Virus record (IMG/VR): IMGVR_UViG_2600254997_000022
Source: a virus
Lineage: Duplodnaviria; Heunggongvirae; Uroviricota; Caudoviricetes
Strand: one strand, 5' to 3'
Length of the DNA: 20,766 nt
The translations under genes were made by a program, and so were the position numbers. Numbering within the stretch: position 1 is the stretch's first letter; every line of letters begins with the position of its first letter. Positions 7,805-20,766 of this stretch are shown here, one piece after another. The notes under the pieces are model-generated. The model was not told the DNA's origin, did not search any database, and worked only from the letters and a program-made list of their open reading frames with translations.

Positions 7805-9114
7805 CCCTTAAGTTTTGCCTGATAGTAACTTTCCGGCAGATAGCCATGTGCGGTCACATAATCCTTAACCAGTGAAGGATCCTGCAACAGCATTTTGGTA
7901 TCAGTTTCTTCGTCCTTTGATTTGGTTACAGGAATACCGAGCCCGGCAATCTGTCGTTTCTGCATTCGAATAATTACGTCCTGCGCTTTATTCAACTCTC
8001 GCAAAAATGCCTCATTGCTGGTTGCTGACTTAATGCCATTTTGAGATTGCATAAGGGCAGCCCTTTCCCCTTCGGTTGGGTTAGAGCCAAAAGTCCCTTT
8101 GAGGCTAGGCAGAATAACCTTTAGGTTGTATTCATCAGCTTTGGCGCGTAGGCTTCGTGTGTCTTCTGCTACATCAGGAAGGAATCCAAACCCCAGCGTC
8201 AGGGGGTTATAGTTCTGCGAGCGGGTAACGGCCGAAGGATGTTTCCCTACAATTCCCGCCAGTTCATGACCCACTTCAAGCGCAGAGTTCAAGGAGTCGA
8301 TGTTACCTGCAACAGTATTAATTTTATCGTTCATCTTCTCCACTTTCGCCTGCTGTACTTTGCTCAGTTCAGCATTGAGCTTGTCTCTCTCGATGTCATT
8401 TTGAGCACGTCCAAGTCGTGCTTTCAGAACCATTTCTCTCGTGCGTAGTTGGTTATCGGATAGGACTTTGAACTGCTCCATATCGAGACGCCGATTACCC
8501 AGTTCCGCATTAACCTGAGCATTATATGCAGATGTATCTGCGTTCTGCTGTGCAATGCTCTGCCCTTGCTGCTTCTCTTGAACACTAAAGTAACTATTTG
8601 GATCAGCATGGAGGTGGATGAGGTCAGTGATTCTGTTGAATTCCTGTGGGTCATTCTGCCAAGACTGATAAACCTCTTCAGCAGGAAGACCAAATCGCTG
8701 TAATACTGGATTTGCCTGCTGAATGGCCTTCTGCATGGTCAGTGGATCTCCAGTTTGTGACGCAAGACGCAGATTCATGGCAGCGTCAGCGGTCTGTCGA
8801 TTTTGCTCAGCATCAATGAATCCCATCTGTTTTTGAGAATCAGCCATAAACTGGGGATACTGGGCCATTAACTTCTGCACGCCAACACGATCATTATTAG
8901 CTACCGCACTACCCAACCGTGCCTGATATTCTTTTAGCTGCTGGGAAATTTGCGCCTGCTGATTAATCTCAGCAACGCCTCTTAGCCCCTGTAGCGCCAT
9001 TAAACCTACGTTTGGCTGCTGCTGATACTGCACAGGCTGAGGAACGGAAGAACGAGGAGCATTATCATTTTGCGGTGCCATGCTAGGCAGCCCGCCAAGT
9101 TGCCATGTCGCCAT
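7795..9114 (-). CDS. Gln/Ala-rich coiled-coil protein, 439 aa; ejection/internal-virion-like
   Basis: Start overlaps the upstream stop (TAATG) and its stop overlaps the next start, so it is translationally coupled. Q/A-rich, low-complexity composition. Assignment is by composition and gene order only. Confidence 0.55.
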   Translation of the reverse strand: MATWQLGGLPSMAPQNDNAPRSSVPQPVQYQQQPNVGLMALQGLRGVAEINQQAQISQQLKEYQARLGSAVANNDRVGVQKLMAQYPQFMADSQKQMGFIDAEQNRQTADAAMNLRLASQTGDPLTMQKAIQQANPVLQRFGLPAEEVYQSWQNDPQEFNRITDLIHLHADPNSYFSVQEKQQGQSIAQQNADTSAYNAQVNAELGNRRLDMEQFKVLSDNQLRTREMVLKARLGRAQNDIERDKLNAELSKVQQAKVEKMNDKINTVAGNIDSLNSALEVGHELAGIVGKHPSAVTRSQNYNPLTLGFGFLPDVAEDTRSLRAKADEYNLKVILPSLKGTFGSNPTEGERAALMQSQNGIKSATSNEAFLRELNKAQDVIIRMQKRQIAGLGIPVTKSKDEETDTKMLLQDPSLVKDYVTAHGYLPESYYQAKLKGWQ

Positions 9115-9791
9115 TAGAATCCAAGCCCCCCAACAAGACCAATAAGCCCACCACCAATAGCCCCGGCGACATTACCTATACCCGGAACAACGGAACCAAG
9201 TTGCGCACCCGCTAAAGCGCCTGATGCCGCCCCACCAATACCACGCGCAAGACTGGATGGCTGCTGCGCCTGACCTGCACGAATAGCGCCAAGCCCCTGC
9301 AAGAGTTGTCCGGTATTATTGGCGTAGTTTTGCCCTGCTGTTGCCTGCCCTGATGCCGCATTCATCCCGACATTTAGCAGGTTTCCATAATTTTGCATTT
9401 GCCCACTGAGCCAATTGTTATAAAGCATGGGCGCAATGGAAGATAACTGGTTACTGGTAGCTGTTGAGCCAAGCCCCCCGGTAGCTTCTGCTGAGACAAG
9501 GTTCTGATAACGGGCCTGATCTGCCTGTGTTTTATATAAACCAGAACCAAAGAAATCATTCGCGGCTTTATTCTGCCCTTCCAGAGTCATCAGTCCTTGT
9601 AGTTGTTGTAAAGCAGGCAATCCGACTTCTGCATACGGCTTGAGATTATTCATCACCGTATTCCACTGCTCGCGCTGCAAATCAATTGCCTGCTGCTGGG
9701 CCTTCGCCTGAGCTTTAGAGGCACCACCATCACCGCCTTTTTCGTATACGGCACGATTGAGATATTTATGAGCTATATGGGTAATTAACAT
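9114..9791 (-). CDS. 225-aa protein with Gly-zipper C-terminus; ejection/internal-virion-like
   Basis: Start overlaps the upstream stop (ATGTTAA). C-terminus GIGGAASGALAGAQLGSVVPGIGNVAGAIGGGLIGLVGGLGF is a glycine-zipper/membrane-like segment. Confidence 0.55.
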   Translation of the reverse strand: MLITHIAHKYLNRAVYEKGGDGGASKAQAKAQQQAIDLQREQWNTVMNNLKPYAEVGLPALQQLQGLMTLEGQNKAANDFFGSGLYKTQADQARYQNLVSAEATGGLGSTATSNQLSSIAPMLYNNWLSGQMQNYGNLLNVGMNAASGQATAGQNYANNTGQLLQGLGAIRAGQAQQPSSLARGIGGAASGALAGAQLGSVVPGIGNVAGAIGGGLIGLVGGLGF

Positions 9792-10246
9792 TCGCTGAAT
9801 TCCTTATATTGTTGCCGAGTTAACTGATAAAGCATTACGCCGACGGGTTTACCACATCTGATATAAGCATCATCAAGGTGACCAACACGGGTAGCGCCAA
9901 GCAAACGGATAATTGCCCGTCCGTATTTGGTGGTGTCAGGAACCATGGTAATGCTGTTAAGGAATGGTGAGTTTTCGAGAAGCCATTTGCAGAATAATCG
10001 ATGCCCTTGCAGTGCATATTCACCACGGAATCCGGGGTCGTACACCGCATGGCATTCAACAATGTTATGCCAGAAGTTACGCACTTCATGAACGCCAGCC
10101 AGCACCAATCCTTCGTAGATACCGAGATATACCGCATCAGGCTTGATGTAGTACGTGTGCCCCGGCTCAACAATATTTTCGGTATTGCCAGGCTCGTTAA
10201 GAAAGGCCTGTAATCGCACAGGGTTATCAATAAATTTTAGTTCCAT
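9785..10246 (-). CDS. hypothetical protein, 153 aa
   Basis: First large ORF of the coupled operon; starts 16 bp downstream of the small upstream ORF. No domain recognised. Confidence 0.55.
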   Translation of the reverse strand: MELKFIDNPVRLQAFLNEPGNTENIVEPGHTYYIKPDAVYLGIYEGLVLAGVHEVRNFWHNIVECHAVYDPGFRGEYALQGHRLFCKWLLENSPFLNSITMVPDTTKYGRAIIRLLGATRVGHLDDAYIRCGKPVGVMLYQLTRQQYKEFSEC

Positions 10247-10262
10247 GCGATGCCATCCATTT

Positions 10263-10424
10263 TCACATACAGCCTGCCAGCGCCTTATCTATTAACCCTC
10301 GTGCAATTTCATGCAGAGTTGGCGCTACTCCAATTCCTGATTTTTTACGCTGCTCTTCCTGAATTTTCTTTATCGCTTCCATTTGCTTCTCACTTATCAA
10401 TACCGGCTTTACTGAAATAGCCAT
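10263..10424 (-). CDS. small protein, 53 aa, possible ribbon-helix-helix DNA-binding fold
   Basis: Below the ORF-track size cutoff; found by manual translation: MAISVKPVLISEKQMEAIKKIQEEQRKKSGIGVAPTLHEIARGLIDKALAGCM. GGGGG RBS 5 nt upstream. A strand-helix-turn-helix pattern is plausible but unverified. Confidence 0.35.
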   Translation of the reverse strand: MAISVKPVLISEKQMEAIKKIQEEQRKKSGIGVAPTLHEIARGLIDKALAGCM

Positions 10425-10437
10425 AACGCCCCCTTAG

Positions 10438-10463
10438 AACTGTATAAAACAACAGTTATTATA
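10438..10463 (-). promoter_or_regulatory. LexA-box-like operator AACTGTATAAAACAACAGTT adjacent to a perfect TATAAT -10
   Basis: CTGT-N8-ACAG at 10438-10457. On the minus strand TATAAT (10463..10458) directly precedes the box, which is followed by the RBS and the ATG at 10424. Confidence 0.5.
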
Positions 10464-10517
10464 GTTTCATAAATCGCAACATTCATCATCGTAATTGCAA
10501 AATATGAAACATATAGC

Positions 10518-10552
10518 ACAAAAAAATGCCACCGCTCAGTAGCTGGTGGCAT
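10518..10552 (-). terminator. strong intrinsic terminator between the replication module and the downstream operon
   Basis: 8-bp stem ATGCCACC/GGTGGCAT with an 11-nt loop, followed on the minus strand by a run of six T. Confidence 0.55.
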
Positions 10553-10872
10553 CGTTCTGTGTGTCAGGTTTTGACAGGTTTTTTATGGACTCTAAAAACT
10601 ATATTTATGGTGTCGCATTACTCTTCACGGCAGGCGCTTTTCAGTTCTGCCCTTGCTTCTGGCTCCATTGGTAATTTGATTCGCGATCAGCTATGCGGAT
10701 GGTTTGCTGAACAGGCATAACAACTTCTCAAGGGCTGTTTTCTGAACTACGAAAATTTCGTAGTGCTCACTTTCAAAAACGTCACGCCCTTGTACACAGG
10801 ATTTTACGAAAGTCTCGTAAAACACTCTCTGATGCCAGCCAGGTGTTGTGCGCATCAATTCAGTCACATTGT

Positions 10873-10974
10873 GTTGGTTCAAAATACCGTGTTGTTGGTT
10901 CAGTGTTGGTTCAATAAAAAGAATAAAATCCTTATAAAACAATACCCTTTATAAATTGAACCAACTGAACCAAC
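10873..10974. repeat. iteron array B: GTTGGTTCA at 10873, 10894, 10905 and tandem TGAACCAAC at 10957, 10966
   Basis: Begins 26 bp after the primase stop. Inverted, ~75% identical copy of module 1045-1165, including the shared spacer AATTT(A/G)TAAAG(G/A)GTATTGTTTT. Confidence 0.75.
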
Positions 10975-10999
10975 ACCTTTTCTACGCACATGAAGAAGC

Positions 11000-13759
11000 T
11001 CATTCTTCAGATGAGTTGTAATCTCCTGGCTGGTAATTGAGTACATAAACGTTTATTTGTCGTCCCTGAATACGTGGTGATTTTCTTTGGTATCCACGAC
11101 CGCTGTTTGGTGGGGTTAGCATCCCGGCTTTTTTCAACACTTCAGCAAACTGTTTTGCGTTGAAACCACATGCGATCTCCTTTTCAAATGTGGCCGGGAA
11201 TGTGTAGAAAATCATTGGGCTTTCGTCATGTTCTCCACGCTGACGGTATCCGGCTAAATCTTTGATGGGCAAATCTGCCGGGCTGTATGGAAATGGTGCA
11301 AAACGGCTAAGCCCATAGGCATTAAGAAATGCCTCCGTTTGTTCAATAATCTGCTGATGTTCTTTGTTACCTGTGCCGAACTCGCGCAACCATGCGTTAT
11401 AGCTGTGCTGTATCGCATCACGGCATGTCTGAGCATCCCAGCCTGTTACAACCTCGCCTAACAGCAATGCGGCCTCCAGAATGGCAAATCGCGCGGCTAC
11501 ACGGTGAACCTGCTCACCATAATCGGATGGGATCAGACTTCTCCATCTGCTTTCGCGGTCACGAACAGTTTTAATTGCCTGTTGCTGGTGGTCTGCCAGC
11601 CATTTAATCCACTCACGCCCGGCTGCGCCGTGGTGATGCTGGTAAGCGTCTTTCAGTGCGTCTGCGTGCTGTTTTCCGTTCTGGTAATCGTGAAAGCGTA
11701 CTGCTTTACTCAACGGAATATTCAGCAGTCGCACCAGTTGCCCGGCTTTGGTTTTTCGCCCGGAAGTAGCGATAAATGTTTCTAAATCCATTTCTCCGGT
11801 GCTGATTGCCACTGTACGCCAGCGTTTTAGATCCCGGTTTCCACCATCTTTAGCGCCTTGCAGTTTCCCTACACCGTTAAATAACGCATAGGCAGACTGT
11901 GAAACACTGACAGGATCAGCGCCCTGACCAACTTCATCAAGCGGCATTAGTCCGTCATTGTGGGCGGCAGCTTCATTTGCCAGCCCCAGCGCGGTTCCGT
12001 ACCACGTCAGCCGCAGTAAATCAGGGTTGCCGTATAAGCTGCTCGCCACGTTTGCCGTGGTGGTCTTACCTGCGCTCGACTGCTCATAGAAATGAATGCC
12101 GAACCCGTCAGCGCCCACCAGCCCAATCAATGGCGCTGCCAGTGCTGCGCCGATCCCGGTCATCATTGAATAGTTACCAAAGGCCAGACGCGCCACGTTA
12201 TCACGCCAGCTTTTCGCGCTCCCTGAGACGGTATATCCGGCTGCGGCTGAGCTTCTCCCGCTGAACAGCACAGGATTTTCAGGTGTTCCGATGATTTCCC
12301 CATCAGGCATGATGTACGCTCCGCATTGCCAGCCAGTGGCATGAGCAACACGCCACAATTCACGAGAGCCACTGCGTTGTAGCCAGTCTGCCAGTATTGC
12401 TCTGAGGCTGCTTTTGGTCGTGACATTTACCCCACCAGCTTTAAGTGTGCGCCATCCTTCACGTTCACCAATATCAGCCAGTGGAATGGCAGCGGTTGTC
12501 GGCGTTTCAGAACCAAACGACAGCCAGCGAAGAATGAGATACTGGTCTTTATCGTCTCTGCCAGTACCGATAACGCTTAACGGAGAACATAACCAGCTTT
12601 CGTTATTGATGATTTCTCCACTCTGGCTGTCAGCTCTCGGAGATACCCAATAAATACCATCCTCGCGGCTTTCTATTCTTGGTTTCAGTGGGTCGGTATC
12701 CATAACCTTAAAATCGCTTCCCTCAATGGTCTGTGGCTCCTGTTTCACGCCATTACCCTGTGGTTGGTACATTGACTTATTGAACGCTTCTGTGGCGCAT
12801 TTAATGCCGTGTTTTTGGTGGTAATCATTCCAGTCTGCTTTGTGATCTGTCGGGGGTAATGCCACCCATCCAGAAACAGATAAAGCTGCTTTTTCTGCTG
12901 CTCTTCTCCCCGTGTTTTGTCTTCCTTCGCTGTGGTCGTTATCCGCAGCAATGATGATTTGTGCTGAAGGAAATTTATCCCGCAGTACCTGGGCGACATA
13001 TAACAGGTTCCCGGCATCAATCGCCGCCACTGTCAGCGCCTCTGGGCGAATTAAATGGGCAGATAATGCCGTTGCCAGCCCTTCTGCGATTAAGATGCTC
13101 TGTGTTGTTTCTGGTGCGTTTATGGCGTGATATGCCCCTCGCTTTGCTGAACCTGTCAGGAGTCTTTTTTCACCATGTGAGGTAATAGTCTGTGCTGCTG
13201 TGACTGCGCCGGATTTATCCACCAGCGCCAGCAACAGAGATCCATCGGGCAACACGGGGAATGTAAAATCACCTACCCCTTTCGCAACCAGATAATCAGA
13301 TTTGCCGTTTACAGCCTTTCTGCGCATGTCATCAAACTGACGGGAAAACGTATCCCGTCTTTGTTGTTCGTCCTTCTCTGCCCTTTTCAGGCGCTCCTGT
13401 TCGCGTCGCTGGCGCTTGGTTTCCAGTTGTTCCCGTTTCTGGCTGGTGGCTTCTGGTGTTTCCGTTGTCCGGTAATCAATACCCAGAACATCAGCGGCAA
13501 GAAGCGCCGCCTCTGTTGTGTCGCAGTTATTTACGCGTTTAATTAAATCCAGCCCATCACCAGCGCCGCACTGATTACAGATGAAGCTACCGCGCCCGTT
13601 GTCATCGAACCGGAATCGATCTTTTCCCCCACATGCAGGGCAGGGAGCATGACGGCGCGGAGAGTCAGGGACATTTATGTTCAGGCAGCCCAGCACATGA
13701 GGCCAGTTGTTTTCAGACGCACTGATAACCTGACGGATAAGATCAATGTTTCGCATCAC
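11000..13759 (-). CDS. primase-helicase (zinc-ribbon + TOPRIM + P-loop NTPase), 919 aa
   Basis: Zinc ribbon CPACGG..FICNQCG near the N-terminus, TOPRIM-like LIAEGLATA...AADNDH, Walker A SSAGKTT. The first codon at 13759 is GTG; the ATG at 13756 is the likelier start. Confidence 0.85.
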   Translation of the reverse strand: MMRNIDLIRQVISASENNWPHVLGCLNINVPDSPRRHAPCPACGGKDRFRFDDNGRGSFICNQCGAGDGLDLIKRVNNCDTTEAALLAADVLGIDYRTTETPEATSQKREQLETKRQRREQERLKRAEKDEQQRRDTFSRQFDDMRRKAVNGKSDYLVAKGVGDFTFPVLPDGSLLLALVDKSGAVTAAQTITSHGEKRLLTGSAKRGAYHAINAPETTQSILIAEGLATALSAHLIRPEALTVAAIDAGNLLYVAQVLRDKFPSAQIIIAADNDHSEGRQNTGRRAAEKAALSVSGWVALPPTDHKADWNDYHQKHGIKCATEAFNKSMYQPQGNGVKQEPQTIEGSDFKVMDTDPLKPRIESREDGIYWVSPRADSQSGEIINNESWLCSPLSVIGTGRDDKDQYLILRWLSFGSETPTTAAIPLADIGEREGWRTLKAGGVNVTTKSSLRAILADWLQRSGSRELWRVAHATGWQCGAYIMPDGEIIGTPENPVLFSGRSSAAAGYTVSGSAKSWRDNVARLAFGNYSMMTGIGAALAAPLIGLVGADGFGIHFYEQSSAGKTTTANVASSLYGNPDLLRLTWYGTALGLANEAAAHNDGLMPLDEVGQGADPVSVSQSAYALFNGVGKLQGAKDGGNRDLKRWRTVAISTGEMDLETFIATSGRKTKAGQLVRLLNIPLSKAVRFHDYQNGKQHADALKDAYQHHHGAAGREWIKWLADHQQQAIKTVRDRESRWRSLIPSDYGEQVHRVAARFAILEAALLLGEVVTGWDAQTCRDAIQHSYNAWLREFGTGNKEHQQIIEQTEAFLNAYGLSRFAPFPYSPADLPIKDLAGYRQRGEHDESPMIFYTFPATFEKEIACGFNAKQFAEVLKKAGMLTPPNSGRGYQRKSPRIQGRQINVYVLNYQPGDYNSSEE

Positions 13760-14114
13760 CGTACCCCACGTGGTCTATAGCGTTTGCGATATGGCTAACC
13801 AGCATCTGCCACTTGGTTATTCCGTAATCAGTCAGCATGCCATCATTGTTTAGCCACATATCAAATTCAGCGGTTGTCGCAAGTTTCCACTGATCGCCGT
13901 GGACAGTTCTCATTGCTGGGTACATGAATGCGCAAATCAGATCACAAACATCTGACGGCTTCAGAGATGTAGTAATGGTGCGTCCCTCTGGCGTCTGAAT
14001 TGCCATTTTCTCTTCACCAGTAGAATGAAGGTTATGAATCCACACAGCACCAGCAATCTTTGCCACCTGCTCTCCGATTGCGGAGCTAAGCGCCATTTCT
14101 GCATTTTCACGCAT
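13743..14114 (-). CDS. hypothetical protein, 123 aa
   Basis: Overlaps both neighbours by 8-17 nt (translational coupling); protein-like composition. Confidence 0.55.
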   Translation of the reverse strand: MRENAEMALSSAIGEQVAKIAGAVWIHNLHSTGEEKMAIQTPEGRTITTSLKPSDVCDLICAFMYPAMRTVHGDQWKLATTAEFDMWLNNDGMLTDYGITKWQMLVSHIANAIDHVGYGDAKH

Positions 14115-14448
14115 GAGAACCTCCCGCTACAGTTGCGCCCATGTCATTAACCATGCTTTGCCATATCTCACGCCCGACGTCAGTCAATCCGTCCTTATTG
14201 ACGCAACGCTCAAGAAGCTCGATCCCCACGGTTTCCCACTGCGGGTAGAACACTTTCATGGCTGCCAGTGTGTAGCTATCGATCAGGCTGCGAACGCCTT
14301 TTACTCCATTGACGATTTCCACACGTACGGCCTTGCCGTCCGCATCAACCATGAAATAGTCCCCGTCGCTGGTGGAGGTAATGTGGTTATACAGTGCCGA
14401 CGCATACTTATTTGCCAGCGCATTCAGTCGGAAATTTTTAGTAATCAT
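14107..14448 (-). CDS. hypothetical protein, 113 aa
   Basis: Coupled to the downstream ORF by an 8-nt overlap; no domain recognised. Confidence 0.55.
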   Translation of the reverse strand: MITKNFRLNALANKYASALYNHITSTSDGDYFMVDADGKAVRVEIVNGVKGVRSLIDSYTLAAMKVFYPQWETVGIELLERCVNKDGLTDVGREIWQSMVNDMGATVAGGSHA

Positions 14449-14458
14449 GGCTCCATCC

Positions 14459-15061
14459 TCAGTGCGTCACTGGTTCCGCTGGCATGCCGTTTTCATTCAG
14501 TTCAGCTATAAAGCTGTTGTGAAGTTCAGCAAGCGTTTCACGACCAAATGGAGTCAGTGCTCCTTGTTCCACATCCATCATGGCTCTGTAGAAAATGATG
14601 GCGCGTTCTGTGCCAGACTCGATGCCAAAACGTTCTATCATCGCGCCCTCAATGTTGTTTGCCATAGCGAGACGCTCTGCTACTGGATACAGCGGCATGG
14701 CGACGATGCCGTTGGAATAAACAGCCACTTCGGAAGGATTGCCAGTATCATCAATGATGCTGACAGTGCCGTTTTCCTCTCTCATTTCCAGCATGAATAC
14801 TGTTGCGATCAGCCATCTCCACATAATGACGTTATGCTGTGATGTGTAATCGAAATATCCCTGGTTGCCGCCATCGGCAATAGCGAGATGTATTGACATA
14901 CCTTCATCTGGTTTATCGTCATAATCCCCGGCATCCAGACGATTTACGGCATCAATATATGAGACGGCCTCAACGCGTTCTGTCATGCCATCGTTGCTGC
15001 GGTACATGATGTTTACGCCGTCAGGCGTTGCTTCTGCATGGAACGTTAAGAAATTATTCAT
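14459..15061 (-). CDS. acidic hypothetical protein, 200 aa (ORF extends to 15166)
   Basis: The ATG at 15061 overlaps the upstream stop (15054-15056) and is preceded by GAGG; the longer ORF would overlap the upstream gene by 113 nt. Confidence 0.55.
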   Translation of the reverse strand: MNNFLTFHAEATPDGVNIMYRSNDGMTERVEAVSYIDAVNRLDAGDYDDKPDEGMSIHLAIADGGNQGYFDYTSQHNVIMWRWLIATVFMLEMREENGTVSIIDDTGNPSEVAVYSNGIVAMPLYPVAERLAMANNIEGAMIERFGIESGTERAIIFYRAMMDVEQGALTPFGRETLAELHNSFIAELNENGMPAEPVTH

Positions 15062-15275
15062 GTTTCGCCTCGCCTGAATGATTCTGTAACTCATATTTGC
15101 CCAACAATTCGTCCGCTTCCTGAATAGCTTCTGGTACGCCATTGAGCAGTGACATAACCGCGCCAATCATTAACTTGTCTCTGTTGCTGGGGCTGGCCCC
15201 TTCAAGCCAGAACCCTAAAACAGTCTGAACCTGTTCGATGCGACATTGCGCTTCGATGAGCTGGATGTTGGTCAT
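15054..15275 (-). CDS. hypothetical protein, 73 aa
   Basis: ATGA overlap with the upstream stop; GGAGAG RBS. Confidence 0.55.
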   Translation of the reverse strand: MTNIQLIEAQCRIEQVQTVLGFWLEGASPSNRDKLMIGAVMSLLNGVPEAIQEADELLGKYELQNHSGEAKHE

Positions 15276-15535
15276 TTCGCACTCTCCGCATCGATTAAAC
15301 TGATATCTATCAGAGAGGTAACTTTTTGTAGCCAGCTAGTGATTACTGTCGCCTGTTCCCCTCCCACCGATGGAAGAATCTCATTCATCACATGAACCAG
15401 ACCTGTGCGCGCTCTGGTAAGCCGTTCAGTCGTGCGATCTGCAAGAGTGAATGTGTCTGGATATGGCTCTTCACGGCTCAGCAATGATTCAATTTCCAGC
15501 TCACACGGATGACGATAAATTAAGTTGATATTCAT
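15272..15535 (-). CDS. hypothetical protein, 87 aa
   Basis: ATGA overlap with the upstream stop; GGGGGTG RBS. Confidence 0.55.
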   Translation of the reverse strand: MNINLIYRHPCELEIESLLSREEPYPDTFTLADRTTERLTRARTGLVHVMNEILPSVGGEQATVITSWLQKVTSLIDISLIDAESAK

Positions 15536-15726
15536 TTTTCACCCCCAAGAATTACCAGCTCTGCACGGGCATCGTTAACCAAAGATGAGCACGCTTTAAT
15601 CGCATCCACGACATCAACAGCGTCCATTTCTTCAGCCGAAAGATTGACAGCAACCAGGACAGCCGCTGCTTGCTCGATTAATTGAAGTGCGGACGTAAGT
15701 CGATGGGCATTAATTGAGTTATTCAT
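15532..15726 (-). CDS. hypothetical protein, 64 aa (ORF extends to 15783)
   Basis: The internal ATG at 15726 overlaps the upstream stop and is preceded by GGGGG. Confidence 0.5.
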   Translation of the reverse strand: MNNSINAHRLTSALQLIEQAAAVLVAVNLSAEEMDAVDVVDAIKACSSLVNDARAELVILGGEK

Positions 15727-15937
15727 TGGTTGCCCCCGTTTTTCCTGGCATTTCGCCACCTTCCAGCAGGAAATGAACGTCACGAACGGCGAGATCCAAT
15801 ATCGCGAGTAACGCCTTCAGTCTTTCGTCTCGTGAGGGAGAGTTGCTCACCAGAATGTCGTTAATCACTTCTGTCAGTGTGATGATCTGGCTTGTGCGTT
15901 CGAGGGGATCCATATGCACATCGTAGGTTTTAATCAT
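15719..15937 (-). CDS. hypothetical protein, 72 aa
   Basis: ATG at 15937..15935 is preceded by GGAGGTG and lies 3 nt after the upstream stop. The 5' extension of this ORF to 16351 is not protein-like. Confidence 0.5.
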   Translation of the reverse strand: MIKTYDVHMDPLERTSQIITLTEVINDILVSNSPSRDERLKALLAILDLAVRDVHFLLEGGEMPGKTGATNE

Positions 15938-16124
15938 GTGCCACCTCCATGCGGATACGACCAGCAAAAAAGCAGACGTGATCGCGCACCAGAGAACGGC
16001 GAGCATCGCGTTCAGACTCGGCAGCAATATGATGAATTTTGGCGGTAATTGTCGGGTAATCGCGGCGAACTGCGGCGATAATCCAGATAAATTGCGGTTT
16101 TTGGGTAGTGGTAGTAGCCAGCAT
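15930..16124 (-). CDS. hypothetical protein, 64 aa; first gene of the small-ORF operon
   Basis: AAGGAGG RBS 7 nt upstream of the ATG; preceded by a ~160-nt structured leader. Confidence 0.5.
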   Translation of the reverse strand: MLATTTTQKPQFIWIIAAVRRDYPTITAKIHHIAAESERDARRSLVRDHVCFFAGRIRMEVAHD

Positions 16125-16281
16125 GTGGCAGCCTCCTTGTACTGGGAATTCTTCCCACCACCGGAGCTGCGAAACTCGCTGGTGGTGGACTGAACAGAGT
16201 TCGCAGTACCGGCGTACAAGGAAACCGGCCAGCCTTTCGGCTGCCCTGTCCAGCCCACCATAATTTTACAAGCGACGCGGA

Positions 16282-16788
16282 TTATAACCACATCACCGAA
16301 AAAAGTGTGAGTCTGGCTAACGGCACAGAAAAAGACGCTCGGCGCGTCCATGTGTCGCCTCGTACATTTCCGGGCTTGCGAAACCCGGCACCCGTTTTAT
16401 GAGGTGCCTTATAACCATAAACCGTGTTGCCGCATAACGGCAAGCTCTTTTTTATGGACTCCGAAAACTCACTATTGGAAGAACCAGAAGCACAGTACAT
16501 CGCGCTCATTTCGTTAACGTCACGCGCGTAGACGAATGTTTTTGTGGAGTCACTACACGAGCAGAACAGGTGATCTACGACCAGAAATTCTCTGGCGCAG
16601 CCGCTGACCTTCTCAACGCTAACACCATCGACCGTAATTTCTGACATAGTTAAGGCATCCGCTCCTACCACCAGCAAATGATAAACTTTGCTTGTATCTG
16701 CTATATTAATGTCTGACTTTGCTGTCATATTGCTGGATTTTGGCGACATACCAGCCAGTGAAAATATCTTCTTCTGGGCGGTTAGCAT
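16282..16788 (-). CDS. hypothetical Cys-rich protein, 168 aa (C-terminal part doubtful)
   Basis: GGAGG RBS, and the start overlaps the upstream stop (ATGCTAA). The 3' third runs through hairpin-rich sequence with atypical composition. Confidence 0.4.
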
Positions 16789-16964
16789 TTGTTAACCTCC
16801 GTGAACTCCTTCATGAAACGTGCCAGCGGTTGTACGCATGGCGATTGATACCCGTCGCGATAAAACGTCACTCGGTTGTGAGACACGCTTTCGACAGTAA
16901 CGAGTGCTCCGTGGGCATCTTTGTAGCGTTTTTGGGGTTGTGGTGTTCCTGTCGGTTTAAACAT
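16782..16964 (-). CDS. hypothetical protein, 60 aa (ORF extends to 17051)
   Basis: Internal ATG at 16964 is preceded by GGAGG and overlaps the antirepressor stop. Confidence 0.45.
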   Translation of the reverse strand: MFKPTGTPQPQKRYKDAHGALVTVESVSHNRVTFYRDGYQSPCVQPLARFMKEFTEVNKC

Positions 16965-17790
16965 GGACCGCCTCCAGACGCTTGGCGAGCCAGCGTTGCG
17001 ACAGGCGGGTGAGTTCTCCTTTGCGCTGCTCATATTCCATGCCCATATCAATTAACGTGATATTGGTGCTTTCGAGATATGAGAGGTGCTCAAGCTGTTC
17101 TGCGTTCATATGGTCGCGAGGTTCGCCAGAATAGCCATTTATCCGCGCCCACTGCTTGGCAGTTAGCCCACCAAGAACGATACGAGAAATCATATTGCTC
17201 TCGTTTGTGTAGTGGTGTTGCTGCGTCGTTTTCCCCTGCTCGGCACGGGCCATATTCAGCGCATCGCACATTGGCTTAAAGTTGTTTGCGGCACTGATAC
17301 GGGCTTTTAGCTGGCGACGATAGCGGGCGGCGATTTCAGGCACGGTACGCTGTAATTCTTCCTCGCACTGGATGAAATAACGGCGGATAGCGCGACCCTG
17401 ATCATTGCGTTCGATCATTGCCAGTTCTTTCGCCATTCCGACACTTAACAGATAGTCTTTGCCGGGTCTGCCAGACTGCTTAATCTTGCTGTAAGCCGCG
17501 CCATTCGGGCTTTTCCCCAAATTTGGGGAAATTGTTTTATGGACTGAGTAATCGTGCCCAATGGTGAAGTCATATTCAGAGATGCGATCAGTGATCCATG
17601 TAGAGAAGTCTTTTCCCACGCCCAACGCTTTGTGTAACGCTTTTGCGCTAACAATATTGGTTTCACGCCCACCGATATGACCAGGAATAACCGGGACAAT
17701 TGCGGCAAATTCATTACCGTTAATTGTGCCCAGAGAGGCGTTCAGATGAGGGGCAGCCTCAGAAATTAATCTGCTTTTTTCGATGTTCAT
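16957..17790 (-). CDS. phage antirepressor (AntA/Bro-N-like N-terminal domain), 277 aa
   Basis: GGAGA RBS. Motifs ..LGVGKDFSTWITDRISEYDF..GHDY.. and ..AIRRYFIQCEEEL.. match my recollection of AntA-type antirepressor domains. Confidence 0.7.
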   Translation of the reverse strand: MNIEKSRLISEAAPHLNASLGTINGNEFAAIVPVIPGHIGGRETNIVSAKALHKALGVGKDFSTWITDRISEYDFTIGHDYSVHKTISPNLGKSPNGAAYSKIKQSGRPGKDYLLSVGMAKELAMIERNDQGRAIRRYFIQCEEELQRTVPEIAARYRRQLKARISAANNFKPMCDALNMARAEQGKTTQQHHYTNESNMISRIVLGGLTAKQWARINGYSGEPRDHMNAEQLEHLSYLESTNITLIDMGMEYEQRKGELTRLSQRWLAKRLEAVHV

Positions 17791-17802
17791 TTTCAGTCTC
17801 CG

Positions 17803-18234
17803 TTAGGCGGCGTTAAACGCGTCCGGGTAGAGTTTCAGAATGTCGGCAATTTCCTGCTGAGAAAGTCCGTTGTGATCATTTATGTTCGCAAGATGGTTAA
17901 CATGAGTGATCACTTTCAGAACATCACCACGGCAGGAGAAACGGTAGCGAAGGTGTGTTCCGATACCATCAGGATTCTTTTCGTCGATACGCTCCAGAGT
18001 GATTCCAAGCTGGCGTTCTAACTCTGTTGCATAGTTACGACCAGATGACAGACGGCAGTAGCGAAGAATGTCATTTTCTGTCCATCCCTCTATACCAGTA
18101 CGCAGCATATAGACTCTGGCACGATGCTTTTTCGGTGTGCGCTTTGGTGCTTGAAGGGATTTTGTAAGGGGCGTAACATCAGATACGCGAATATCTGAAT
18201 TAGCCGCCTGTAATGGGCGGTTTTTCTTTTCCAT
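17803..18234 (-). CDS. hypothetical protein, 143 aa; translationally coupled to alpA
   Basis: Its ATG overlaps the alpA stop (TGATG). Basic N-terminus; no domain recognised. Confidence 0.6.
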   Translation of the reverse strand: MEKKNRPLQAANSDIRVSDVTPLTKSLQAPKRTPKKHRARVYMLRTGIEGWTENDILRYCRLSSGRNYATELERQLGITLERIDEKNPDGIGTHLRYRFSCRGDVLKVITHVNHLANINDHNGLSQQEIADILKLYPDAFNAA

Positions 18235-18437
18235 CAGGCCACCTTCCCGCGGCGTTCTGCCAGCCAGTTGTGAATCTCAACCGCATCAAACGCAGTTATT
18301 TTTTCTCCCAGCTTTACCGGACGTGGTAGTGAACCGTTTCTTACTTTACGGTCGATGGTGGATACACTAACGCCCAGCAATTCAGCCAGGCGAAAGCGTC
18401 TGATATAGCCTTTTGTAGGGATAGTGTCGATGTTCAT
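18234..18437 (-). CDS. alpA: AlpA-family (CP4-57-type) HTH regulator, 67 aa
   Basis: RFRLAELLGVSVSTIDRKVRNGSLPRPVKLGEKITAFDAVEIHNWL matches the AlpA pattern; sits in the usual position inward of a P4-type integrase. Confidence 0.8.
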   Translation of the reverse strand: MNIDTIPTKGYIRRFRLAELLGVSVSTIDRKVRNGSLPRPVKLGEKITAFDAVEIHNWLAERRGKVA

Positions 18438-18500
18438 GATTCCCGTAACCTCTTAGCGATAGTTGTTGCTTCGTTACGAGAAATCTAGCTGTATAGATAT

Positions 18501-18532
18501 ACAATGAAAAGGTACTGTAATTTTGCAGTACC
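18501..18532 (-). terminator. putative intrinsic terminator after the 316-aa cargo ORF
   Basis: Inverted repeat GGTACTG-N8-CAGTACC followed on the minus strand by TTTTCATTG, 12 bp after the stop at 18544. Confidence 0.4.
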
Positions 18533-18543
18533 TCTATAGTAAG

Positions 18544-19494
18544 TTAACTATCCACTTTGCCATTTGCCGCAGATCGTAGATGTTTAAGAATTACATCTTC
18601 ATTAGTTATCATAAGTGGTGGAACTTCGTCTAAATGACGAACAAGACAGTCACGCCACTTCTCAGGGCTTATTTCTTTCCTTTCTCCCCTGCATTCATTT
18701 GGATACTTACTAAGTATATAAATTGCAGATTTTAATAGTTTCTCCCTATTGACTGCGTACCGTTCGGCACGTTTATTAACTTTTAGCGTATTTATATCAT
18801 TGGATAACTTGTTTGCGGATGGTTTGTGCATGGGTCTGTCATAAATATATTTTCCTCCATTTATAAGAAGATTGTATTCATAGTCAGTTATATACATTTT
18901 GTTTCGGCTTATTTCATACCAGCCGTCAATATAAAAAGCTCCGATTTCATAATTATTCGATTTGCTAAACTCGTCACATCTCGGAGGCATCAGTTCGCAT
19001 ACAGAGATCTCCCAATCATCCCATTCTGATAGCTCCCGCTCATCGTTATCTATGAACGCAGGCGGAATTGCTAATAGACCGCTCCATCTTTCGATATCTC
19101 TTTCATCCTTCCCAACATTATATCGCTCTATAACTGAGAAATGTTCTGATTTGTATGAAAACCTCATAAAATACATATAGTTATCGCTATTTTTATAATC
19201 AGGTGATGATAAGCCATATGATTCGAGATTATCTGCCTTATTGCTCAGATCAAGGAGATAATTCTCATGTGCTGCTTTTGTATCTATATGAAAAATACTA
19301 TCTGTTTCAACTTTAAGTAATTCTGGCTCGGCATCTTCATTTTTTGGGTAATGGTAAAACAATTCAATAGGTGGAATTTTTATACATATTTCTAAAACCC
19401 CAATTGCTGCATAGTGTATTAAATCGGATACTTCACATCCGGCCAGTTTGGCTGCTTTATCCAAAGAATAATATTTATGCGCAGGTAATTTCAT
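18544..19494 (-). CDS. AT-rich hypothetical protein with N-terminal HTH-like segment, 316 aa (cargo gene next to the integrase)
   Basis: Starts 19 bp after the integrase stop, with GAGAGGA 10 nt upstream. N-terminus YSLDKAAKLAGCEVSDLIHYAAIG is HTH-like; the remaining ~270 aa have no recognisable motif. Appears clearly lower in GC than its neighbours (estimated by eye, about 38%). Confidence 0.7.
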   Translation of the reverse strand: MKLPAHKYYSLDKAAKLAGCEVSDLIHYAAIGVLEICIKIPPIELFYHYPKNEDAEPELLKVETDSIFHIDTKAAHENYLLDLSNKADNLESYGLSSPDYKNSDNYMYFMRFSYKSEHFSVIERYNVGKDERDIERWSGLLAIPPAFIDNDERELSEWDDWEISVCELMPPRCDEFSKSNNYEIGAFYIDGWYEISRNKMYITDYEYNLLINGGKYIYDRPMHKPSANKLSNDINTLKVNKRAERYAVNREKLLKSAIYILSKYPNECRGERKEISPEKWRDCLVRHLDEVPPLMITNEDVILKHLRSAANGKVDS

Positions 19495-19512
19495 TATGAA
19501 TATTTCCTCTCA

Positions 19513-20766
19513 TCATGCTCTGATTGGCGTTACGTTGTAGTCTTTTCCGCTTTCCAGTGCCACCAGCAGATCTGCCCACTGTGCCAGTGCTGCTTTACGC
19601 TCATCAAAATACTGATGACGGTTATAAATCCCCTCTACGCCCTTAATGCGATGATTGAGGCATCGTTCCGCCACGACAGGATCAACACCCAATGCTGCTA
19701 AATGAGTACGTGCGGTGCGTCGGAAGTCGTGAATCGTGAAATTAGGCACATCCGGCATTTCGGCGCGAACCTTAGCCAGTGCTACGGGTAAAGTGCTTTC
19801 CTGAATATGTGGGATCATTCTGTTTTGCATCTTCCTGGCCGGAAGCACCCATGCGCTATTACATGAAAAGGTGTGTAGCTCTCTCAACCATTCAACGGCT
19901 GGGGAAGGTAGAGGTATATCAATAGGGTCTCCGTTTTTGCTGCGTTCTTCCGGCAAATGCCATACCGCACCATCTAAATCAAACTCTTCCCATCGTGCGG
20001 CGCATAACTCCATCTTACGAACGCATAGTGCCAGCAATAGTTTAAATGTCAGTTCGTTTTGGCGGCTGAATCCTTTTGCGGTGCGCATAGCCTCGAATAG
20101 CCTGATAAGCTCATCGCGAGTTAGCCAACGGTCGCGGGAAACCTCTTTACCACCAGCATCAGATACTTCAAACGCTGAACAAGGGTTTATCTCCAGAGCG
20201 TGGCGTTTTATCCCATAGTCAAAGATACGGCGTGTCCAGCGTAATACATCTGTTGCTATCGTTGGTGCTCCTCGGTCAACGATACCTTTCAACATGTCGT
20301 CAATGTGGCGTGGCTTAACGTCCTCTACCTTCATATGCCCAATGCAGGGGTTAATATCCTTATCAATTCTCCGGCGAAGGATATCGGGATGTTTCCATCT
20401 CGGAAGTATCTGGCGCTCGAAGTATTCGGAGGCCAGATCTGAAACACGCATGGCGTTTTTCTCAGCCTCCATTTTTGCCAGTGCTTCAGCTTTTCGTTCC
20501 TGTTTCTCTGCTGCTACGTCATAGCCAAGAGCAACTCTGGCTGACAGCTCTTTCGCTGTTTCTCTGGCTTTTGATAGTGACAGTTCGGAGTAAGAGCCTA
20601 TAACCATAGCCCGCTGCTTTCCTGCGAGCTTATAGCGGAATCGCCAGAACGGGACTGTGTAGTTTTTGGGGTAGCAAATATAAAGGCCGTTGCCGTCTGC
20701 CTTGCCATCAAATCTGTCTCCCGCCTTTATCCATGCGCGGATCTGCATATCTGTGAGTTTTGGCAT
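19513..20766 (-). CDS. int: tyrosine site-specific integrase, P4 family, 417 aa
   Basis: C-terminal catalytic region with HDFRRTARTH and NRHQY (catalytic Tyr). N-terminus MPKLTDMQIRAW...DGNGLY resembles P4-type integrase N-termini. The start codon is at the window edge. Confidence 0.9.
   Translation of the reverse strand: MPKLTDMQIRAWIKAGDRFDGKADGNGLYICYPKNYTVPFWRFRYKLAGKQRAMVIGSYSELSLSKARETAKELSARVALGYDVAAEKQERKAEALAKMEAEKNAMRVSDLASEYFERQILPRWKHPDILRRRIDKDINPCIGHMKVEDVKPRHIDDMLKGIVDRGAPTIATDVLRWTRRIFDYGIKRHALEINPCSAFEVSDAGGKEVSRDRWLTRDELIRLFEAMRTAKGFSRQNELTFKLLLALCVRKMELCAARWEEFDLDGAVWHLPEERSKNGDPIDIPLPSPAVEWLRELHTFSCNSAWVLPARKMQNRMIPHIQESTLPVALAKVRAEMPDVPNFTIHDFRRTARTHLAALGVDPVVAERCLNHRIKGVEGIYNRHQYFDERKAALAQWADLLVALESGKDYNVTPIRA

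Follow-up and report, generated by a model that had tools for sequence, protein, structure and literature searches.

An unnamed gene family between int and alpA in enterobacterial satellites, a possible phage-sensing part of the integration and induction module

The window analysed here is the whole stretch of 20,766 nucleotides (nt) in IMG/VR virus record IMGVR_UViG_2600254997_000022. Its main subject is gene X, our label for the 316-amino acid (aa) open reading frame (ORF) at 18544-19494 on the minus strand, which starts with ATG and lies between an integrase gene (int, 19513-20766) and an alpA gene (18234-18437) in an int-X-alpA module, where a first-pass annotation made from the letters alone had placed it. 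X is a member of a large unnamed superfamily, which is a dedicated, though not universal, third part of the int-X-alpA module in enterobacterial satellites of the phage-inducible chromosomal island (PICI) type. X is probably a phage-facing part of a satellite on/off module, not random cargo, and we tentatively favour the reading that it is dedicated to the int-alpA switch, as its phage-facing regulator or sensor. What is said of its mechanism beyond anatomy, distribution and selection is what we infer.

Gene X and its family in the int-alpA slot

By our own arithmetic, the chance of 316 open codons is ~1e-10, with stops making up ~7% of random codons at 36% GC. Compared with a diverged E. coli allele, X shows 52 synonymous and 43 non-synonymous differences, and the ratio of non-synonymous to synonymous substitution rates (dN/dS) is 0.18 overall, 0.13 at the N-terminus, 0.20 in the centre and 0.13 at the C-terminus. 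Because of these ratios, over the whole gene and by region, X is a functional protein-coding gene under purifying selection. Its GC content was correctly described at first reading as lower than that of its neighbours: 0.358 for X (0.287 at third codon positions, GC3), against 0.494 for int (GC3 0.471), 0.500 for alpA and 0.481 for the whole window.

A word-indexed search retrieved 61 relatives of X, all from Enterobacterales and all named 'hypothetical'. A profile search of 1.84 billion representatives extended the family to 639 clusters (50% identity) at an expectation value (E) ≤1e-3, including 168 at E ≤1e-10. Nearly all clusters are 270-350 aa in length, and none of the sampled members has a functional name. 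Every informative context examined showed the order int, X, AlpA-family gene, at no fewer than seven attachment sites; these contexts were filled in by exact-protein look-ups, and one further contig was too short to judge. At the yicC site the hosts are E. coli, Salmonella, Pantoea, Kosakonia, Pectobacterium, Tatumella and Intestinirhabdus. The same order was also seen in Enterobacter and is kept in a Pantoea metagenome-assembled genome with an integrase that is just 26% identical. Six distant members of the family keep it as well, at sites adjoining ycaO, yejM, a PQQ dehydrogenase gene, tnaAB and others. The replication modules downstream vary, being of the DUF927, D5_N/DUF5906 or DUF3631 types. 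Because the family is kept between int and alpA in all informative contexts, its function appears to be tied to the integration and induction module.

A tblastn search found no copy of X in 50,697 phage genomes. Among plasmid records the same approach gave a single match, to a 4.9-Mb record that is evidently a chromosome, and none in true plasmids. Eleven IMG/VR contigs, ranging in size from 11 to 41 kb, carry X. Across genera, int is 88-90% identical, yet the first 190 residues of X are unalignable.

The window's integrase is present in 335 of 5426 complete E. coli genomes. Five cassettes in the slot between int and alpA cover 292 of the genomes with this int, as follows.

Query allele: 316 aa, 41 genomes; X family
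L003-type: 321 aa, 77 genomes; X family, C-terminus 78% identical
L004-type: 281 aa, 38 genomes; X superfamily, E 3.5e-51 with the broad profile
L006-type: 293 aa, 24 genomes; separate family, in which the N-terminal 44 residues alone match X (hhalign E 2e-4, probability 46%)
L005-type: 216 aa, 112 genomes; unrelated to X, no known domain, the commonest cassette

All five cassettes are AT-rich, with a GC content of 0.36-0.43. Sequence similarity from island to island breaks off 6 nt before the int stop and resumes, depending on the cassette, within X codon ~248, 66 nt past the X stop or where alpA starts. Of the ~25 int-alpA places listed for a sample of yicC-type E. coli islands, none was empty. 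Synonymous divergence (dS) is discordant between int and X, at 0.61 versus 0.016 in one strain and 0.047 versus 0.34 in another. At the level of sequence, exchange of alleles and cassettes by recombination between islands sharing int and alpA is thus shown.

Two of the cassettes were considered as further members of the X family. The L005-type protein was rejected as a hidden member (hhalign E 0.91); its gene, at 1425-2075 of locus L005 (E. coli E1535) and in 111 other E. coli genomes, has a start that overlaps the int stop by 4 nt. For the L006-type protein the match is weak and limited to the N-terminal segment given above. The L006-type family (1059-1940 of locus L006, plus 54 homologues) is evenly conserved over its full length, and its hosts are Enterobacterales including Morganella, Providencia and Yersinia, with a distant homologue in Neptunomonas.

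The first-pass annotation regarded the place as an integrase-proximal accessory hotspot and proposed a survey of the slot in related islands. Part of this stands, as X occupies a replaceable low-GC cassette with sharp borders and at least five alternatives in E. coli, within which the slot is polymorphic. The slot is not, however, a generic defence hotspot. Three of the five cassettes belong to one family, a fourth shares the N-terminal module, there is no credible match to the PADLOC defence models, and in the wider survey one superfamily dominates, always in the order int-X-alpA.

Protein X and its possible role at the int-alpA switch

An AlphaFold2 model of X was built from 52 sequences, the query and 51 relatives, and is confident (predicted local distance difference test, pLDDT, 80.7; predicted template modelling score, pTM, 0.62). 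The protein is divided as follows, with identities given as pairwise means over the 52 sequences.

Residues 1-45: predicted Xis/MerR-like winged-helix module; identity 0.42
Residues 46-220: predicted hypervariable acidic beta-rich domain; isoelectric point (pI) 4.5, net charge -18 over 175 residues
Residues 221-240: disordered linker; identity 0.18
Residues 241-313: conserved basic helical domain; pI 9.3, identity 0.74, pLDDT 84.9 in a separate domain model

Within the centre, identity is 0.24 for residues 46-110, 0.27 for 111-193 and 0.35 for 194-220. The alignment contains 20 invariant columns, and the overall charge of X is -12. As modelled, the N-terminus resembles the winged helices of Xis (Pukovnik Xis), RdfS and MerR.

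No match for the query was found in Pfam or NCBIfam, none of the 52 homologues has a noteworthy Pfam match, and no enzymatic or membrane effector domain is recognisable in X. A profile search of PDB sequences with X returned nothing at E ≤10. X has no significant structural match in PDB or BFVD, and its central domain has no match in either. PADLOC-DB 2.0 (5027 models) contains no match to the query at E ≤1, and the 52 family members and other cassettes gave stray matches only (E 0.002-0.04, 1-2 proteins each, not co-linear). One of these, a PDC-S31 match of the L003 allele (E 0.002), concerns one of the 52 members, is not co-linear and was set aside as noise. A match of residues 1-44 to PHROG 13283 (E 0.019, function unassigned) is weak and uninformative. 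The first-pass annotation had seen no motif beyond an N-terminal helix-turn-helix (HTH)-like segment and suggested structure prediction. Pfam, NCBIfam and PADLOC agree with it, and the model gives a predicted winged-helix-like N-terminus and a centre unmatched in PDB and BFVD.

One superfamily dominates the slot, was seen in no other context, and has a fixed three-part architecture with no recognisable effector-like domain, which argues that its function is bound to the int-alpA module. In the regulator or sensor role that we tentatively favour, X would be produced along with Int during quiescence of the satellite. The conserved ends of X, the predicted Xis/MerR-like winged helix and the basic C-terminal helical domain, would dock it to a conserved partner of the module, for which the DNA of the int-alpA region, Int and AlpA are candidates. 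The fast-evolving acidic centre would recognise a variable partner, most likely a phage protein. Binding of this partner would change whether the int-alpA switch fires, and X would be a gatekeeper that senses the helper, with a function like that of Stl in Gram-positive PICIs. Phage specificity would differ between X alleles, and immunity is possible as well.

A bolder version, which we consider unlikely, is that the X family is the missing helper-phage sensor of many Gram-negative PICIs, a Stl-like gatekeeper made with Int. X would then hold the alpA switch off, or arm it, until a specific phage protein is bound. The route by which helper phages induce alpA in Gram-negative PICIs, and the existence of any repressor, were stated to be open questions in 2018 (PMC6092414). 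With hundreds of clusters and never named, the X family is a concrete candidate for this missing alpA sensor or repressor function. If the bolder version is true, the allelic cassettes would set the helper range of each satellite, and maybe immunity against non-helper phages. An integrase-contiguous gene in a variable satellite integration zone is precedented; the unannotated family is new. If X proves to be an excision cofactor or a defence gene instead, its family would still be widespread and new, unmatched in structure in PDB and BFVD, and would account for the polymorphism of this interval in E. coli, Salmonella, Klebsiella and plant-associated Enterobacterales.

Several points weigh against a role as regulator or sensor. 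EcCIMP1, a PICI experimentally induced and transduced by the P22-like phage Kapi1 (PMC11773190), lacks X and has another int-alpA module, yet helper phage can still induce and transfer it (PMC11773190); therefore, X is not generally required for alpA induction. About a third of the E. coli islands that share this int and alpA have an unrelated 216-aa protein in the slot. The stl/str pair is divergent, whereas X has the orientation of alpA. In the N-terminal module, the putative recognition helix has an invariant Asp and is not basic, and X is not supported as an AlpA paralogue (hhalign against the AlpA alignment, E 0.012, probability 3.6%). Because this helix is not basic and the similarity to AlpA is not significant, DNA binding by X is doubtful. 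Finally, the low GC, the cassette behaviour and expression alongside int would fit a defence gene equally well.

Several known systems resemble X in part. In PICMIs (phage-inducible chromosomal minimalist islands) of Vibrio, the iolg/icg genes between int and alpA fall into 13 unrelated families of unassigned function (PMC10803314). They are present in most PICMI elements. Like iolg/icg, X comes directly after int and before alpA on the same strand, as in all related loci examined. Unlike iolg, which overlaps int by 4 nt in the PICMI prototype and comes from a different bacterial family, X follows int after a gap of 18 nt. Whereas iolg/icg comprise many families, X is part of a single, very large superfamily whose C-terminal domain is conserved, and the two are likened by position. 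In Gram-positive PICIs, Stl is an int-proximal regulator that senses helper proteins via a divergent domain (PMC6092414), and some Stl proteins are reported also to give immunity (PMC11846896). X shares with Stl/Rpr from SaPIs, pathogenicity islands in Staphylococcus aureus, the int-proximal slot, an N-terminal HTH-type module (predicted in the case of X) joined to a highly divergent part, and allelic diversity, which for Stl/Rpr matches different phage inducers. However, stl is divergent from the genes that it controls, whereas X is on the same strand as alpA with a hairpin terminator between them, and the likeness is one of position and layout.

The 5' accessory or immune region of Gram-negative PICIs (PMC11364771) also lies beside int, with variable and horizontally exchanged content. 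Unlike that region, the cassettes described here have no credible match to a defence model, and one family, seen nowhere else, dominates the slot. The immunity (imm) regions of lambdoid phages are likewise polymorphic cassettes with sharp recombination borders, conserved flanks and several alleles per species; by comparison, non-coding DNA makes up ~85 nt of the X cassette, and its likeness to a repressor region is one of cassette layout alone. YfjH of the E. coli K-12 element CP4-57 is, like X, a protein of similar size (~318 aa) and unassigned function encoded between intA and alpA, but yfjH is on the opposite strand. Homology between YfjH and X was rejected (BLASTP E 0.72).

Other explanations of X were weighed against the same evidence. 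It is possible, if on the unlikely side, that X is a stand-alone anti-phage or helper-interference gene, carried as cargo of the PICI 5' accessory region and independent of int and alpA; the variable centre would sense a phage protein and the conserved C-terminal domain would be an effector or recruit a host factor. Immune systems are reported at the 5' or 3' ends of PICIs (PMC11364771), and the sharp borders and low GC of the cassette, the polymorphism of the slot within one species, the terminator of X, its probable expression with int in the quiescent state and a hypervariable domain suggestive of an arms race are all consistent with such a gene. EcCIMP1-type islands give superinfection immunity without a recognised defence system (PMC11773190), but that island has no X. 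Against a defence gene stand the lack of a credible PADLOC match for the query, its 51 relatives or the other cassettes, and the lack of a recognisable enzymatic or membrane effector domain. Moreover, defence genes normally change contexts, whereas the X family, in the contexts examined, is seen just between int and alpA and is absent from the phage and plasmid collections, and the slot is dominated by one family rather than by many unrelated systems. A quite unlikely explanation is that X is a site-specific recombination cofactor like iolg/icg, an architectural or directionality factor that would join Int and AlpA in the complex for excision or integration. Excision of PICMI115 depends on the gene that lies between its int and alpA (PMC10803314), X moves with int and alpA as one swapped module, its predicted N-terminal fold is excisionase-like, no empty slot appears among the int-alpA places listed for the sampled yicC-type E. 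coli islands, and the unrelated L005-type cassette has the same 4-nt overlap with the int stop as iolg. Hypervariability and free exchange against the same int, however, are unexpected for a partner of conserved Int and att sites, as are unrelated proteins in the slot beside near-identical int and alpA genes. EcCIMP1 excises with only Int and AlpA shown as required (PMC11773190), and the HTH-like helix of X has no basic residues.

That X is an establishment factor, such as an acidic DNA mimic or anti-restriction or anti-defence protein, that aids entry of the satellite into a new host, is very improbable. The strongly acidic centre would suit it, and a variable domain could track diverse host defence proteins, but X resembles neither ArdA nor Ocr nor any solved or viral predicted structure, its charge is just -12 overall, a basic C-terminal domain and an HTH-like module are not features of known mimics, and a place downstream of int is not an obvious early-entry locus. 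Low GC and the lack of annotation and of a known domain would also be expected of a decaying or silent ORF that hitch-hikes, without function, in foreign AT-rich DNA. This is hardly credible for a gene with dN/dS held at 0.13-0.20 across three domains (0.18 overall), full-length homologues kept in many genera, a confident AlphaFold2 model and 20 invariant columns among 52 sequences.

Non-coding signals and neighbouring genes of the module

All features of the int-X-alpA module are on the minus strand, and those beside X are as follows.

19513-20766, minus strand: int, a tyrosine integrase (Pfam Arm-DNA-bind_3, Phage_int_M and Phage_integrase); the ORF runs past the window end
19506-19510, minus strand: Shine-Dalgarno-like AGAGG, read from the sequence, 11 nt before the X ATG and 2 nt past the int stop
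18508-18535, minus strand: hairpin with a T-run directly after the X stop; -14 kcal/mol, z = -3.0 versus shuffles
18444-18478, minus strand: inverted repeat CGTAAC...GTTACG, which encloses the alpA Shine-Dalgarno AAGAGG (18449-18454) and ends 6 nt before the alpA ATG
18234-18437, minus strand: alpA, encoding an AlpA-family regulator or excisionase-like protein (Pfam PF05930, E 2e-8); last gene of the swapped module

The int gene adjoins yicC in E. coli SFE8 and other genomes. It encodes an integrase specific for the site beside yicC and is the first gene of the swapped module. The ATG of X lies 18 nt past the int stop, and alpA starts 106 nt past the X stop. In 18100-19800, a promoter scan gave no sigma-70-like site for the minus strand. 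Because no promoter-like site or terminator was found between int and X, the simplest reading implies that X would be co-transcribed with int.

The hairpin at 18508-18535 agrees with the putative terminator that the first-pass annotation assigned to X. Ten of 12 related lineages have it at the same offset, with pairs that are U.G or swapped (compensatory), and distant relatives of X have stronger hairpins at that place, with 12-23 bp perfect stems. The border of the L004-type cassette, 66 nt past the X stop, lies beyond it. This hairpin is probably an intrinsic terminator that insulates alpA from int-X transcription and a part of the cassette. It was absent from the list returned by a consensus terminator scan. 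The palindrome was also considered as an operator for the conserved C-terminal domain; this was weakened by the U.G wobble, which keeps the stem, and by the unrelated, longer, perfect T-run hairpins of distant lineages at the same place, which are terminator-like. The hairpin itself contains TACAG/CTGTA, and in most lineages extra TACAG copies occur beside it or ~20-25 nt downstream (18480-18535 in the window and the matching intergenic regions of loci L003, L009, L010, L016 and L032). These copies are candidates for a protein-binding array or a part of the alpA promoter.

The CGTAAC...GTTACG arms are conserved across the aligned yicC-type modules regardless of cassette, and by this alignment the inverted repeat at 18444-18478 is part of the conserved alpA side and lies outside the cassette. 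At the corresponding position, a 7-10 bp stem of unrelated sequence is found in five distant lineages (L034, L035, L036, L037 and L040). This suggests a conserved RNA structure at the alpA ribosome-binding site, which could, by putative occlusion of that site, leave alpA untranslated on int-X read-through transcripts.

An EcCIMP1-type island backbone

Outside the swapped module, the window is closely related to EcCIMP1, already a tractable system. Compared by blastn with NZ_CP139039 (E. coli MP1), window positions 925-5918 and 7230-18244 (5.0 and 11.0 kb) share 98.2% and 98.8% identity, respectively, with EcCIMP1.

925-18244, minus strand: PICI backbone, with p143 (a 143-aa protein), an AntA antirepressor, a Toprim/DUF927 primase, DUF2824 and P22 gp7/gp20/gp16-like ejection genes
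5919-7229: IS3-family element, with orfA at 5973-6299 (HTH_Tnp_1) and orfB at 6296-7187 (rve domains, frameshift-split)

The genes for Int, AlpA and the Toprim/DUF927 primase are all on the minus strand, and what lies downstream of them is limited to P22-type ejection genes and DUF2824. With int, alpA and the primase gene co-oriented and no phage structural or lysis module, the layout is that of a Gram-negative PICI. None of psu, delta, sid or a P4 alpha-type primase was found among the 16 larger window ORFs scanned against Pfam. The initial description of the element as a P4-type island was rejected, as the backbone is 98-99% identical to EcCIMP1, which its authors class as a PICI.

The identity to EcCIMP1 ends at 18244/18245, within the 3' end of alpA. 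EcCIMP1 carries an alpA allele of its own and a tRNA-Thr integrase, and in an EcCIMP1-type island, L018, int and alpA are 29% and 36% identical to those of the window. According to the EcCIMP1 authors, just a small ORF lies between int and alpA (PMC11773190). RefSeq annotates no gene between them in MP1 or L018, and the gap in L018 is 392 nt. Because the EcCIMP1 identity stops at 18244 inside alpA, int, X and alpA were evidently exchanged as one block. On sequence grounds, the window is an EcCIMP1 variant in which the insertion site changed from tRNA-Thr to yicC.

Homologues of P22 ejection proteins are encoded at 7190-10246 (gp7, a gp20-like translocase and an SLT-domain gp16-like protein), together with DUF2824. 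The EcCIMP1 authors noted these genes too and suggested a role in packaging or morphogenesis (PMC11773190). The IS3-family element breaks the lytic-transglycosylase/P22 gp16-like ejection gene, which is intact in EcCIMP1. Positions 1-924 are outside the EcCIMP1 match, and small minus-strand ORFs are located at 1-369, 407-736 and 721-1008.

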